Source: Candidatus Peribacter riflensis
Lineage (GTDB): Bacteria > Patescibacteriota > Gracilibacteria > Peribacterales > Peribacteraceae
Assembly (NCBI GenBank): GCA_001430755.1
Contig: CP013062.1
Location: forward strand, 750,001 to 782,000
Reading direction: 5' to 3'
DNA length: 32,000 nucleotides
Shown here piece after piece: positions 1,382-31,128 of the stretch. How positions within the stretch are numbered: position 1 is the first letter of the stretch; each line of letters begins with the position of its first letter. The notes beneath the pieces are model-generated. The model did no database searches, was not told where the DNA came from, and worked only from the letters and a program-made list of their open reading frames with translations. The position numbers were made by a program, and so were the translations under genes.

Positions 1382-1390
1382 TGCTACAGT
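1382..1390 (+). promoter_or_regulatory. Extended -10 promoter TGcTACAGT, 8 nt upstream of ATG 1399
   Basis: The sequence is tgctacagt-gcccccgc-ATG. The same TGCTAYAMT-N6-8-ATG layout recurs at hrcA, ruvA, the purP-like gene and the zinc-ribbon gene. Confidence 0.5.
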
Positions 1391-1398
1391 GCCCCCGC

Positions 1399-2787
1399 AT
1401 GTTCTGTCAGCTCCTCCGTTCCTGGCCCCGCACCATTCTGTTGTGCACGTTACTCCTTGCGAGTGTGCCAGCCGTCGCCCAGAGCGACATTCAGAGAGAC
1501 GTTTCGCGACTGCAGTGGCGTTTCGACAGCCTGCTCAAGGCAAAAACTCCCCAGGCCGTCGATCCCATTCAACAGAACATCGAAGCGGAGCGCGCCGCGA
1601 TTCGGTCAGAATTTGAAAAAGAATTTCAAAAGACCATTAAAGACCTGGAGCAGAACCGGACAGAACCCGCAGATCTCGTGCAGGCTCTCGACCGGCAGCG
1701 CACGATCGTTGATGCCATCAGTCAGCGCATCGACGAGGCAAAGGCGGATCTCGCGCTGCTGGAGAATGAAGAATCTTACTACAAAGATATCCAGAAGAGC
1801 GGCACCGGCTCACTGCCATCGGATCAGATCCTGCTGACCAAATCCTACCCGGAACTCCTGGCCAAGAAGGCCATTATGGAGGAACGCCTCGCTGTACTGC
1901 ACGCATTCCAGAAAACCCAGAACGACCGGCTGAATACCCTGAAGCAGGAAGAGCAGGTCCGGGATATCGGCGTGCTCTTCAATATCCTCACGTACCTTGC
2001 CATATTCTTCGTGGTCTTCTGGGTAGAGCGCCTCGTCAGAAACCTCCTGCTGAATCATATCCGCTACCGACGCCTGCGCTACGCCACCACAAAGGTCTTC
2101 ACTTTCGTCGTGTACATCACGCTCAGCTTCTGGTTCGTCCAACGCATCTTCTCTGAGCATCCGGGCCTCTCGACCATCATCGCCCTTGTAGGCGCCGCCA
2201 TGATCATTGTCATGCAGGACGTCATCAAAGGCGCCGTCGGGTGGTTCAGCCTGAAGAATTCCGTCTCCATCGGTCAGCGCGTGGCCATCGGAGATATGGT
2301 GGGTGATGTGATCGACGTGGGCATGTTGTACACCACCCTCATCGTTTCCCGCTCGGGCAATGACGATCCCATGGGCCAGGTGGGCAACATCGTCCGCGTC
2401 CCCAACCAGAAGATCCTCACGGATCCGTTCGTGAACTTCCACTCCACTTCGGACTTCGAGAACGTTGAGATCCCTATTCGCCTGCGCCAACTGGAGCAGA
2501 GCGAGAAGGCGAAGAGCATTCTGGAGGACATTCTGGAAAAGGAGACGGGTGACTTCGCCACCCAGGCCCAGCGCCAGATGGATCGCCGCATGCGCGGGTA
2601 CTACGTCTCGCAGATCTCCCCTGCCGCGCGCGTCTACATGGAAGTCACCGCAGAAGGAGGAGTCGAATTCCGCCTGTGTTTCCCCGCCCCCATCGGCAGG
2701 CGCCGCGCAGTGATCACACAGATCACGCAGGAGATCCTCAGACAATTCGGGGAGGCGCACATCGAACTCCCGGCACCGAAGGCCTGA
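1399..2787 (+). CDS. MscS-family mechanosensitive ion channel with a long N-terminal extracytoplasmic coiled-coil region
   Basis: This is the tracked ORF 1381..2787. The tracked start is GTG, and I prefer ATG 1399 because of the promoter just upstream. Hydrophobic helices (LTYLAIFFVVFWVE, FTFVVYITLSFWFV, IIALVGAAMIIVMQDVIKG) are followed by an MscS beta-domain-like sequence: SIGQRVAIGDMVGDVIDVGMLYTTLIV...IVRVPNQKILTDPFVNF. Confidence 0.85.
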   Translation: MFCQLLRSWPRTILLCTLLLASVPAVAQSDIQRDVSRLQWRFDSLLKAKTPQAVDPIQQNIEAERAAIRSEFEKEFQKTIKDLEQNRTEPADLVQALDRQRTIVDAISQRIDEAKADLALLENEESYYKDIQKSGTGSLPSDQILLTKSYPELLAKKAIMEERLAVLHAFQKTQNDRLNTLKQEEQVRDIGVLFNILTYLAIFFVVFWVERLVRNLLLNHIRYRRLRYATTKVFTFVVYITLSFWFVQRIFSEHPGLSTIIALVGAAMIIVMQDVIKGAVGWFSLKNSVSIGQRVAIGDMVGDVIDVGMLYTTLIVSRSGNDDPMGQVGNIVRVPNQKILTDPFVNFHSTSDFENVEIPIRLRQLEQSEKAKSILEDILEKETGDFATQAQRQMDRRMRGYYVSQISPAARVYMEVTAEGGVEFRLCFPAPIGRRRAVITQITQEILRQFGEAHIELPAPKA

Positions 2788-2850
2788 AATGTCAGTCATA
2801 GTTGTCTCATAGAAAGTGAAGTGAAGTTCACTGAGGAGTGATGCCAGTTC

Positions 2851-2890
2851 ATTGGCTTACAGAAGCCAATTCTTAACTCTTTTTCTTGTT
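2851..2890 (+). terminator. Probable intrinsic terminator of the MscS-family gene
   Basis: A 7-bp stem attggct/agccaat with loop tacaga is followed by the T-rich tail tcttaactctttttcttgtt. Confidence 0.5.
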
Positions 2891-2941
2891 CAATAAATGT
2901 GATCAATACTATGAAATAAAGGATACGACCAGTGGAAGAGT

Positions 2942-2969
2942 TTGCCCAGAGAACTTTGCGCGGTACAAT
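2942..2969 (+). promoter_or_regulatory. Orphan sigma70-like promoter TTGCCC-N16-TACAAT firing rightward into a region with no ORF
   Basis: The sequence is ttgccc agagaactttgcgcgg tacaat. It lies in a low-GC patch, and the only nearby ATG (2968) overlaps the -10 hexamer. Confidence 0.4.
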
Positions 2970-29338: not shown

Positions 29339-29345
29339 GTAACAT

Positions 29346-29393
29346 GTCATCCTGAGCGCCTGCCTGCCGGCAGGCAGGTAGCCGAAGGATGAC
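29346..29393 (+). repeat. Nested hairpin of the CCTGAGCG...CGAAGG type
   Basis: The outer stem is gtcatcct/aggatgac, and the inner part is the perfect 20-nt palindrome cctgcctgccggcaggcagg. It starts 8 nt after the TPR gene stop. Confidence 0.6.
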
Positions 29394-29435
29394 TTCGCAT
29401 GCCATGGTTCGACTACGCTCACCATGACAATGCTT

Positions 29436-29444
29436 TGCTATACT
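29436..29444 (+). promoter_or_regulatory. Extended -10 promoter TGcTATACT, 7 nt upstream of ATG 29452
   Basis: The sequence is tTGCTATACT-cctttcc-ATG, and the 9-mer is identical to the one at hrcA. Confidence 0.5.
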
Positions 29445-29451
29445 CCTTTCC

Positions 29452-31128
29452 ATGCAGAAAGCCTGCCGAGAGTGCGGCCAATTCTTCGAGATCACGCAGG
29501 ATGATCTGGATTTTTATGAAAAAATTTCCCCCGCCTTCAACGGGAAGAAAGAACTGATCCCGCCGCCTCTGCTCTGTCCGGATTGCCGTCGGCAGCGAAG
29601 ATTCGCTTTTCGCAACGAACGTTCACTCTACCGTCGCCGAAGCTCGCTTTCGGGAGCGGAAATCATCTCCTGCTACCCGGAAGAGTATGAGCCACCCGTC
29701 TACGGGCACGAGGAATGGTTCGAAGACAAATGGGATGCCCTAGCGTACGGGCACCCCTGGGACGCGTATGCCCCGTTCCTCACCCAGTTCCACACTCTCT
29801 TAGAAAGAGTCCCGGCCATTGCAAGCAACAGTCATGTCAACAACGTGAACTGCCCGTACACGAATTACGTCGGCTCATGCAAAAACTGCTACATGATCTT
29901 CGGATCGGTGTACTGCGAAGATTGCCTGTACGGGACCCCATACAACTCGCGGTCCTGCGTCGATTCCCTCCTCGTTCGCGACTGCGAACTCTGCCATGAC
30001 TGTGTTACGTGCGAGAAATGCTACAGTTGCATCTCTTGTCAGGATTGTGCGAACGGACACGATTTGCTCTTCTGTTACGACTGTGATGGATGCAGAGACT
30101 GTGTGGGATGTGCAGGACTCCGCCGAAGGCAGTATTGCATCTTCAACGAACAACTTTCCCCCGAAGAGTATCGCAGAAAGCGATCGGCTATAGACCTGTG
30201 CGAACCTAAGAGTATCGCAGAAATTCGAGAAAAATTTGAGGAGACGAAAAGAAAAAAACTTCGACGTTCTACACTCACGCTCTCATCTGAGAACGTGACC
30301 GGAGACTATGTCTATTTCTCAAGAAATACGCACGATGCGTACGACGTCCAACGATGCGAGGATTGCGCATATATGGCACAGACCATCGATATGAAGGACT
30401 GCCAGGACTGCAACTACATGGAAGAATGTGAACTTTGCCATGAATACATCTGCAGTTACCGCAATCACAGCATTCACTACTGTATCTGGCTTCTGGATTG
30501 TTCCGATGTTTGGTACAGCAGTTACTGCACCTCCTCACATCATCTTTTCGGCTGCATCGGCCTCAAACACAAGCAGTACTGCATTTTAAACAAGCAATAC
30601 TCCAAAGAAGAATACGAAACATTGGTCCCGCAGATCATCGAATCTATGAGAAAAACCGGTGAATGGGGTGAGTTTTTCCCTGCGGCGATGAGTCCCTTTG
30701 CGTACAACGAAACCGTGGCGCAGGAATACTTTCCGATGACGAAGAAAGAAGTGGAGAAACGCGGTTGGAAGTGGCGGGAGGAGAAAGATGATATGCCGAA
30801 GGTATCGAAGGTGATTCCGGCAACAAAGCTCCCCGACGCGATCGAGGAGATTCCGGATGACATCGTGAACTGGGCCATCGAATGTGAGGCGACCAAGCGG
30901 CCTTTCAGGATCATCAGACAGGAATTGGACTTCTACCGAAAGATGAAGCTTCCCATCCCCCACTTCCATCCCGATGAGCGGCACAGAAGGAGGATGGCAC
31001 TCCGAAACCCCCGCCGCCTCTGGAAGAGGCCGTGCAGGAAGTGCGGAAAGGAGATGGAAACGACTTACAGCCCTGAGCGGCCGGAAATTGTTTATTGTGA
31101 GGAGTGTTACCTCAAGGAGGTGTACTGA
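29452..31128 (+). CDS. Cys-rich zinc-ribbon protein (558 aa) with related N- and C-terminal zinc-ribbon modules and two internal Cys-rich modules
   Basis: The N-terminal module is CRECGQFFEITQDDLDFYEKI...CPDCRRQRRFAFRNERSLYRR. The C-terminal module is RPFRIIRQELDFYRKMKLP...ERHRRRMALRNPRRLWKRPCRKCGKEMETTY...VYCEECY. The centre is dense in CxxC and CxDC spacings. I know of no function for this architecture. Confidence 0.8.
   Translation: MQKACRECGQFFEITQDDLDFYEKISPAFNGKKELIPPPLLCPDCRRQRRFAFRNERSLYRRRSSLSGAEIISCYPEEYEPPVYGHEEWFEDKWDALAYGHPWDAYAPFLTQFHTLLERVPAIASNSHVNNVNCPYTNYVGSCKNCYMIFGSVYCEDCLYGTPYNSRSCVDSLLVRDCELCHDCVTCEKCYSCISCQDCANGHDLLFCYDCDGCRDCVGCAGLRRRQYCIFNEQLSPEEYRRKRSAIDLCEPKSIAEIREKFEETKRKKLRRSTLTLSSENVTGDYVYFSRNTHDAYDVQRCEDCAYMAQTIDMKDCQDCNYMEECELCHEYICSYRNHSIHYCIWLLDCSDVWYSSYCTSSHHLFGCIGLKHKQYCILNKQYSKEEYETLVPQIIESMRKTGEWGEFFPAAMSPFAYNETVAQEYFPMTKKEVEKRGWKWREEKDDMPKVSKVIPATKLPDAIEEIPDDIVNWAIECEATKRPFRIIRQELDFYRKMKLPIPHFHPDERHRRRMALRNPRRLWKRPCRKCGKEMETTYSPERPEIVYCEECYLKEVY

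Follow-up and report, generated by a model that had tools for sequence, protein, structure and literature searches.

In a window of 32,000 nucleotides (nt) from Candidatus Peribacter riflensis (bases 750001-782000 of its closed genome, which has 1.248 Mb and 58.5% GC), 14 of some 27 genes carry a -10-like promoter hexamer, TANNNT, placed only 6-10 nt before the start codon. This bacterium is tiny, uncultured, comes from groundwater and belongs to the Candidate Phyla Radiation (CPR). In our opinion it is highly probable that the arrangement reflects widespread leaderless or near-leaderless transcription, which would concern about one quarter to one third of all genes in this species, with a layout conserved across the family Peribacteraceae. 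Housekeeping promoters of the sigma-70 type, with a weak -35 element (TTG), a frequent TGn and a -10 box of the form TA[C/T/G]A[A/C]T, would be set so close to the start codon that RNA polymerase begins on the A or G of that codon, or 1-4 nt before it. The resulting mRNAs would have no leader, or one too short for a ribosome-binding site, and would thus be expected to take the leaderless route, in which the ribosome with initiator tRNA recognises a 5'-terminal AUG or GUG. All this would happen in a genome that seems to have no working Shine-Dalgarno (SD) system, as judged from a CUUCC tail of the 16S rRNA, no enrichment of SD sites and a ribosomal protein bS21 that was not found. The actual start of transcription and the mode of translation we infer from the motif, its position, the promoter architecture and the conservation, which are described below.

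A sequence-only reading of this stretch had listed 14 transcription units by box, spacing and start, and on reading them back the hexamer, the N6-N10 spacer and the start codon all match in 14 of 14. The 9-mer tgcTAYAMT is indeed common to five sites, those of the MscS, hrcA, ruvA, PurP-like and Zn-ribbon genes. TANNNT occurs upstream of starts at 1.26% per position, which by chance would give about 6% of starts a hexamer at N6-N10, or about 1.7 genes in the window, against the 14 observed (P ~1e-10). The labels given earlier to the genes agree with our Pfam scans (MscS, hrcA, gyrA, M23, ruvA, PGI, two PurP-type genes, GT2, PfkB, TPR, Zn-ribbon), and the closest relatives of GyrA are all from Candidatus Peribacter or from metagenome-assembled genomes (MAGs) of Peribacteria.

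The genome as a whole tells the same story. Genes were taken from a simple codon-usage caller, which gives 942-943 of them and 86% coding; it is crude, so all percentages are approximate. With d as the number of nt between the end of the box and the start codon, and with the most upstream possible start taken for each of 943 genes, TANNNT ends at d=6, 7, 8 and 9 in 79, 27, 45 and 51 genes, that is in 202 genes where about 48 are expected, compared with about 12 per position elsewhere. There is nearly no such peak upstream of internal in-frame ATG, GTG or TTG codons, and none at d20-39 in the true upstream regions. A 9-nt weight matrix trained on the peak sites and applied at d5-10 with a threshold of at least 6 bits finds a box before 19.6% of first-candidate starts, against 5.9% at d20-25 of the same regions and 0.6% of 13,867 internal decoy starts. 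If any start candidate within 120 nt is allowed, 34% of genes have a box where 2% are expected, which is an excess of about 300 genes, and the share is 36% among putative first genes. The sequence-only reading had proposed to examine how the distance of the motif is distributed before all starts of the genome: it peaks at d6-9, with 6 nt as the modal spacing. It had also predicted positional enrichment of TGCTAYAMT, and this holds as well: of its 43 copies in the genome (about 21 are expected from composition), 17 precede an early in-frame start of a called gene by 6-9 nt, as do 89 of the 589 copies of TGNTANNNT. Finally, the box-bearing starts have the preference that characterizes leaderless mRNAs, AUG and less often GUG: 83% are ATG, 15% GTG and 2% TTG, versus 65, 20 and 15% for all first candidates.

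The aligned sites look like promoters. In the consensus TA[C/T/G]A[A/C]T the T1, A2 and T6 are invariant, T is depleted at position -1 of the box, and TG stands at -3/-2 of it in 27% of sites. Exactly at the first bases of a -35 hexamer set 17 nt upstream, T, T and G are enriched, with frequencies of 0.43, 0.45 and 0.34. With the modal spacing of 6 nt, the A of the ATG would be the seventh nucleotide after the -10 box, which is the canonical +1, and the sites at d=6 indeed fit the pyrimidine/purine rule of transcription starts, with a purine in 11% at -1 and in 99% at +1. The box rate further depends on genomic context. It is 9% for genes lying less than 20 nt behind a neighbour on the same strand and 17-47% in the other classes, the highest value belonging to divergent pairs 20-60 nt apart.

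For the comparison with relatives, orthologs were taken from the gyrA neighbourhoods of 40 Peribacteria genomes and from syntenic blocks of eight congeneric genomes with 70-80% DNA identity. For 11 box-bearing genes of the window, TANNNT is present at d5-11 in 102 of 118 unique orthologous upstream regions, mostly with identical spacing, while seven leadered control genes of the same window have it in 5 of 45. This conservation is seen at 50-90% protein identity. Within the family, the d=6-9 peak is found in seven of eight Peribacteraceae genomes of different genera (18-32% of genes versus a background of 3-9%) and is weak in the eighth, G084. Among four genomes from other families of the class, G152 and G179 have no peak, and G165 and G218 have a modest one over a high-AT background; in low-GC outgroup genomes, the TANNNT background is too high for a clean answer. 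Taken together, the positional peak with its decoys, the promoter architecture, the bias towards ATG and GTG, the depletion inside operons, and the conservation in orthologs and in the family argue for the leaderless mRNAs that had been predicted.

Regarding the translational side, the 3' end of the 16S rRNA reads ...GGAACACUUCCUUA, i.e. it has CUUCC in place of CCUCC, and 29 of the 30 16S genes of the family lack CCUCC. Genome-wide, SD words (GGAGG, GGAAG and related ones) form no positional peak before starts, and SD 6-mers are not enriched, with 45 genes having one at d4-11 and likewise 45 genes in a control window. We also tried an unrestricted genome scan for SD words with an open reading frame behind them, and rejected it because it returned only coding-region noise. 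A search of this closed genome, which is 98% complete, did not find the protein bS21 (PF01165). Its loss is frequent in Peregrinibacteria (PMC9297842). Four S1 domains are present in an open frame of 510 residues (C1:690172-691176, plus strand), which is likely the ribosomal protein bS1. That this species has lost the SD system is already published. It was placed among the "SD-scarce" organisms without CCUCC (PMC10783764), with a tabulated value of 7, which we take to be the percentage of SD-bearing genes; both points, the SD scarcity and the absence of CCUCC, are confirmed here. In the four genomes of other families of the class (G152, G165, G179 and G218; L177-L196), a CCUCC-like 16S tail was seen in two, G152 and G218, and no clear SD peak was seen in samples of 100 kb. 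SD use may be weak across the class.

Several observations weigh against so simple a picture. When both hexamers are strictly required, a scan of the window gives 12 matches, compared with about 10 in shuffled sequences, and this total stays at chance level because the -35 elements are weak; four of the 12 matches coincide with claimed sites (HExxH protein, the open reading frame of 105 amino acids, surface protein and lipoprotein), thus with four of the 14 listed. A box is also present before 28% of the genes that were scored as "internal" (gap below 50 nt, on crude calls), a sign either of many promoters within the preceding genes or of poor operon assignment. At d=8-10, which comprises about 40% of sites, leaders of 1-4 nt would be as likely as none. 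The gene for a Trx/CcdA fusion illustrates this (20215-20235, plus strand; TATACT, spacer GCCGCAACG, ATG 20233). Its TATACTGCCGCAAC is conserved in 7 of 7 orthologs, and the box together with GCCGCAAC is fixed, yet the distance to the ATG varies, being 8 or 11 nt; transcription probably starts at a fixed point 1-5 nt before the ATG. Hence "near-leaderless" describes some of the longer spacings better than "leaderless". In addition, there may be further promoters upstream that give leadered transcripts.

The last point may be extended to the argument that the boxes are real but secondary promoters, and that most transcripts start further upstream and have ordinary leaders, with leaderless translation as a minor route. 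Leadered layouts do exist in the window, since TTGATA-17-TATAAT stands 26 nt before the ATG of the gene at 1286 and tgTATCAT 29 nt before that of gyrA, and the boxes of the "internal" genes may be counted on the same side. Nevertheless, we think this explanation unlikely. Most of the 14 intergenic spaces contain no other -10-like box, the divergent gaps of 20-60 nt, which have no room for another promoter, show the highest box rate (47%), and the spacing between box and ATG is fixed across orthologs, which would not be expected if the promoter had nothing to do with the start codon. It is also conceivable that the hexamers are elements of the mRNA, for example an unstructured or A/U-rich translation enhancer that replaces the SD. 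A genome without SD sites needs some other signal in its leaders, and the leadered genes do have a positioned pyrimidine motif that is not an SD (see below). However, an mRNA element has no reason to take the exact form of a sigma-70 -10 box with TGn and with TTG 17 nt upstream, or to be followed by a pyrimidine at -1 and a purine at +1; moreover, the hrcA box overlaps a CIRCE (controlling inverted repeat of chaperone expression) operator, as would be expected of a repressible promoter, and depletion of the motif is seen where internal genes are tightly coupled. We therefore regard such an element as very improbable. To an artefact of composition or of open reading frame calling, arising from AT-rich patches or from in-frame TAA and TAG stops that define the first start candidate, we give next to no credence. 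Indeed, at spacings of 6, 9 and 12 nt a hexamer that begins with TAA or TAG is itself an in-frame stop and can inflate the counts, but the peak persists when only TAY-initial hexamers are counted (47, 16, 34 and 32 at d6-9 against 7.1 per position), it is absent at d20-39 and at internal starts, and it is conserved in orthologs at 50-90% protein identity. Promoters abutting the start codon, with predicted leaderless or near-leaderless mRNAs, thus remain our preferred interpretation.

The individual sites of the window support it to different degrees. The MscS-like gene (1382-1401, plus strand) has tgcTACAGT, an 8-nt spacer GCCCCCGC and ATG 1399, with a position weight matrix (PWM) score of 8.4 bits; its box, TGTGCTAMAGT, stands in the same place in three genus relatives, although d=8 can be confirmed in only one of the three alignments, the one that reaches residue 1. 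In rpmE (encoding L31; 7225-7245, minus strand), TAGACT lies 9 nt before ATG 7227; the box is kept in 27 of 34 orthologs, in 23 of those 27 at d=9, and a -35 element CTTGC is conserved down to 50% protein identity. In ruvA (14316-14335, plus strand), tgcTACACT is separated from ATG 14333 by an 8-nt pyrimidine spacer, and 7 of 7 orthologs have a box at d=8. RuvA_N aligns with its residues 1-61 to positions 1-61 of the Pfam model, and L31 likewise from residue 1, so that the starts of ruvA and rpmE cannot be further upstream. The M23 peptidase gene (14031-14052, minus strand; cgcTATAAT, a purine-rich 10-nt spacer, ATG 14033; 10.8 bits) keeps TATAAT-N10-ATG in the orthologous loci L146 and L131, and its mRNA likely has a leader of about 3-4 nt.

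Further along the window, the PurP-like paralog (18536-18555, minus strand) has tgcTACACT, an 8-nt spacer and ATG 18538 (10.3 bits), with a box at d6-10 in 5 of 7 orthologs. The conserved PurP gene, starting at 19730, shows TTGATT-N17-TAAGCT 12 nt before its ATG and a conserved AAATACC before ATG (19731-19775, minus strand), so that its leader may have about 5-6 nt and stand between the leaderless and the leadered type. The 105-residue open reading frame (19820-19856, plus strand; TTGACA-16-TACAGT, 6-nt spacer, ATG 19854) scores 10/12 in the strict scan, and its perfect TTGACA and its box are conserved in 2 of 2 orthologs. For GT2 (21565-21582, plus strand), cagTAGAAT stands 6 nt before GTG 21580 (9.1 bits), and the Pfam GT2 domain begins at residue 5. 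The lipoprotein gene (23507-23546, minus strand; TTGTCT-17-TATCAT, 8-nt spacer, GTG 23509) matches the strict scan and preserves CAGTATCAT(G)-N-GTG/ATG in seven genus orthologs. The surface protein gene (23731-23772, plus strand; TTGAGT-17-tggTACAAT, 10-nt spacer, ATG 23770) matches it together with the TG, and the entire promoter with d=10 is conserved in 6 of 6 orthologs. The TPR protein gene (28005-28024, plus strand) has ctgTATCGT 8 nt before ATG 28022 with a score of 5.6 bits, and TATCGT or TACTCT is found at d8-9 in 7 of 7 orthologs. The Zn-ribbon gene (29436-29454, plus strand; tgcTATACT, 7-nt spacer, ATG 29452; 10.8 bits) belongs to a paralog family, and a TATACT-like box precedes 6 of 6 homologous starts at d6-9.

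Two further sites belong to divergent genes. The HExxH protein gene (11414-11451, minus strand) has TTGACA-17-TATTTT, a 6-nt spacer and ATG 11416, scoring 10/12 in the strict scan and 5.3 bits with the PWM; for this gene and for GT2, no orthologs were recovered in the fetched loci. On the opposite strand, rsmI (11492-11513, plus) adds a site to the earlier list, gggTATCAT with a 10-nt spacer before ATG 11511. The two divergent genes are 94 nt apart (11417-11510), a gap just large enough for two promoters arranged back to back, the -10 boxes of which lie at 11423-11428 and 11495-11500.

The hrcA site (6957-6974, minus strand) has tgcTATACT 6 nt before ATG 6959 and scores 10.8 bits; TANNNT is found at d6-9 in 21 of 22 unique orthologous upstream regions, and in 19 of those 21 at d=6-7. 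By pattern match, a CIRCE operator, TAGCACTC-N9-GAGTGCTA (6970-6994, minus strand), overlaps this -10 box. It agrees with the consensus TTAGCACTC-N9-GAGTGCTAA, its arms are conserved in most orthologs, and the TGCTA of the box doubles as the right arm of the operator.

The box had also been recommended as a guide to the choice of start codons where the open frame over-extends. This advice was good for most genes named and failed for one. For hrcA the true start is 6959, while the open frame runs to 7124, and the box also marks the starts of the M23 peptidase (14033), the surface protein (23770) and the lipoprotein (23509). In rsmI it selects 11511 rather than 11439: 19 orthologs align from the Met at 11511, 13 of them have TANNNT at d6-8, and the Pfam domain begins 25 residues past 11439. 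It does not work for PfkB. There the frame is open from 26198, yet 8 of 8 genus orthologs conserve the protein only from ATG 26261 (MSIGGATYDLF), which has no box. Translation likely begins at this ATG, which would leave a leader of about 65 nt (26198-26263).

It had further been suggested, on account of a GGAGGTG before the small gene at 12708, that both modes of initiation coexist. The element itself is real and conserved. It is part of an SD-like AAAGGAAGGAGGTGA (12709-12726, minus strand), 3 nt (CCC) before ATG 12708 of a gene for a 93-residue membrane protein with no Pfam family, and GAAAGGAGGTG is conserved in 12 of 12 genus orthologs, though the protein is only 46-66% identical. By our own pairing, the region of AAAGGAAGGAGGTGA could form 9 bp (one of them G-U) with the 16S tail CACUUCCUU. 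The same element also folds back onto the first codons with 10 pairs, as one arm of a hairpin around the start codon, GGAGGTGACC/CATG/GGTTACTTCT (12696-12726, minus strand), and this hairpin may be a translational switch. Being conserved, able to pair with 16S rRNA and an arm of the hairpin, the element appears to be a functional exception. It is not evidence for a second general mode: with no SD enrichment in the genome, SD initiation stands as a rare exception only.

Genes without a nearby -10 box look different. Their leaders are G-poor and C/U-rich, and expectation-maximization (EM) motif finding gives the consensus TTCCCC/CTTCCCCC, the 3' end of which peaks 7-9 nt before the start; this is the geometry of an SD with the opposite base composition. 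Examples are seen at 10005-10035 (the gyrA leader), 14890-14916 (PGI), 16270-16309 (trx) and 27235-27259. The motif is present in P. riflensis (G000) and G004, weaker C/U-rich signals are found in G084, G015 and G035, and it is absent from G021; EM motif finding is unstable on samples of 200 kb or less. It would be attractive to propose that Peribacteraceae have a fully SD-free, two-track initiation, in which about one third of genes are leaderless and the leadered ones use the positioned UUCCCC (3' end 7-9 nt before the start), read in a sequence-specific manner by a factor other than the anti-SD. We consider this proposal doubtful. Candidate readers are the four-domain bS1 or the purine run GGGAR that lies 3' of the 16S tail, and our tests disfavour the version with rRNA pairing.

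We rejected this "reversed SD", in which UUCCCC would pair with GGGAA after the 16S tail, for several reasons. Genomes with GGGAA tails and those with GGGAG tails share their top 5-mers (TCCCC, TTCCC, CTCCC), the complementarity ends after 4-5 nt, G021 has the hairpin described below with no pyrimidine motif, and relatives with intact CCUCC have the same tail-loop-GGAG arrangement, which indicates a precursor hairpin. Downstream of the 16S gene (L001:2949-2978, corresponding to C1 ~1021386-1021415 of G000; L082-L110 in relatives), (T/G)TACCAGGRA is found in 30 of 30 Peribacteraceae and TTACCAGGGA in 29 of 30. There the anti-SD remnant pairs with the downstream purine run in a 4-bp stem with a 7-nt loop, with pairing in 99% of cells. 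The purine run is conserved and co-varies with the mutated anti-SD, one pair changes from C-G (15 sequences) to U-A (11) without mismatches, and other families of the class have CCUCC-loop-GGAG at the equivalent position. In our opinion, this is probably a structure of the rRNA precursor that masks the tail. The leaders of some relatives are expanded into repeats like CCTTACCTTCCTTACC, upstream of PGI orthologs (L144, L138, L137, L146) and of the ortholog of the gene at 27260 (L141, L132, L134). The 10 bases CUUCCUUACC of the 16S tail recur within these repeats, which may represent mimicry of the rRNA tail or simple growth of a CT microsatellite.

If our interpretation is correct, a whole CPR family would transcribe about one third of its genes from promoters abutting the start codon, in a genome without a working SD system. 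This has practical consequences. In these MAG-derived genomes, start codons are often set too far upstream, as here for hrcA, rsmI, M23 and the surface protein, gene finders that rely on the SD will mis-call them, and anyone wishing to express Peribacteria genes obtains usable rules for promoters and starts. It is debated, moreover, if leaderless initiation is ancestral or has repeatedly re-evolved upon decay of SD pairing, and the present case brings a deep-branching lineage with a reduced genome into this debate.

Several known systems invite comparison. The inverted repeat at the hrcA promoter is like that of CIRCE/HrcA heat-shock systems and implies autoregulation. However, in Peribacter the operator is not part of a transcribed leader but overlaps the -10 box of a leaderless-type promoter, and unlike in the hrcA-grpE-dnaK layout, the gene downstream of hrcA encodes a HerA/T4CP-like ATPase. 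As in Bacteroidia and Flavobacteriia, initiation is SD-independent genome-wide and a few exceptional genes have a strong SD. Bacteroidia have leadered mRNAs with A-rich leaders, and their anti-SD is intact and sequestered by ribosomal proteins including bS21. Peribacter differs in that the anti-SD is mutated, bS21 was not found and about one third of the genes have start-abutting promoters.

Our results agree with studies of SD-scarce or anti-SD-less CPR bacteria (PMC6107228; for Parcubacteria, Tsurumaki et al. 2022, PMC9297842) in the SD scarcity and the lack of CCUCC in P. riflensis. Those studies scored rRNA-mRNA pairing, not the distance from promoter to start, and we found in them no statement that P. 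riflensis uses leaderless transcripts. Likewise, no leaderless transcription is described for Peribacteria in the full text of the genome paper (PMC4736985) or in the literature found on leaderless mRNAs together with CPR, Patescibacteria or individual CPR groups. The closest parallel is "group C" of GeneMarkS-2 (Lomsadze et al. 2018, PMC6028130), as its main text presents it. In this group, mostly Actinobacteria and Deinococcus-Thermus, with Mycobacterium tuberculosis and Deinococcus deserti as examples, starts have a Pribnow box at a distance of about 6-10 nt, predictions make about 25-50% of operons leaderless, and the rest have SD sites; no CPR or Peribacteria lineage appears in the passages searched, and the word "Candidatus" occurs nowhere in that main text. 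Peribacter resembles group C in the Pribnow box 6-10 nt from many starts, in the share of such genes (about 34%, within 25-50%) and in the strong preference for AUG and GUG. It is unlike group C, where the 16S rRNA keeps CCUCC and the remaining genes have an SD, in that its SD sites are at chance level, its tail is CUUCC and its leaders are C/U-rich and G-poor. The mechanism is therefore a known one and not new; what is new is the lineage, and leadered genes that are without SD sites.

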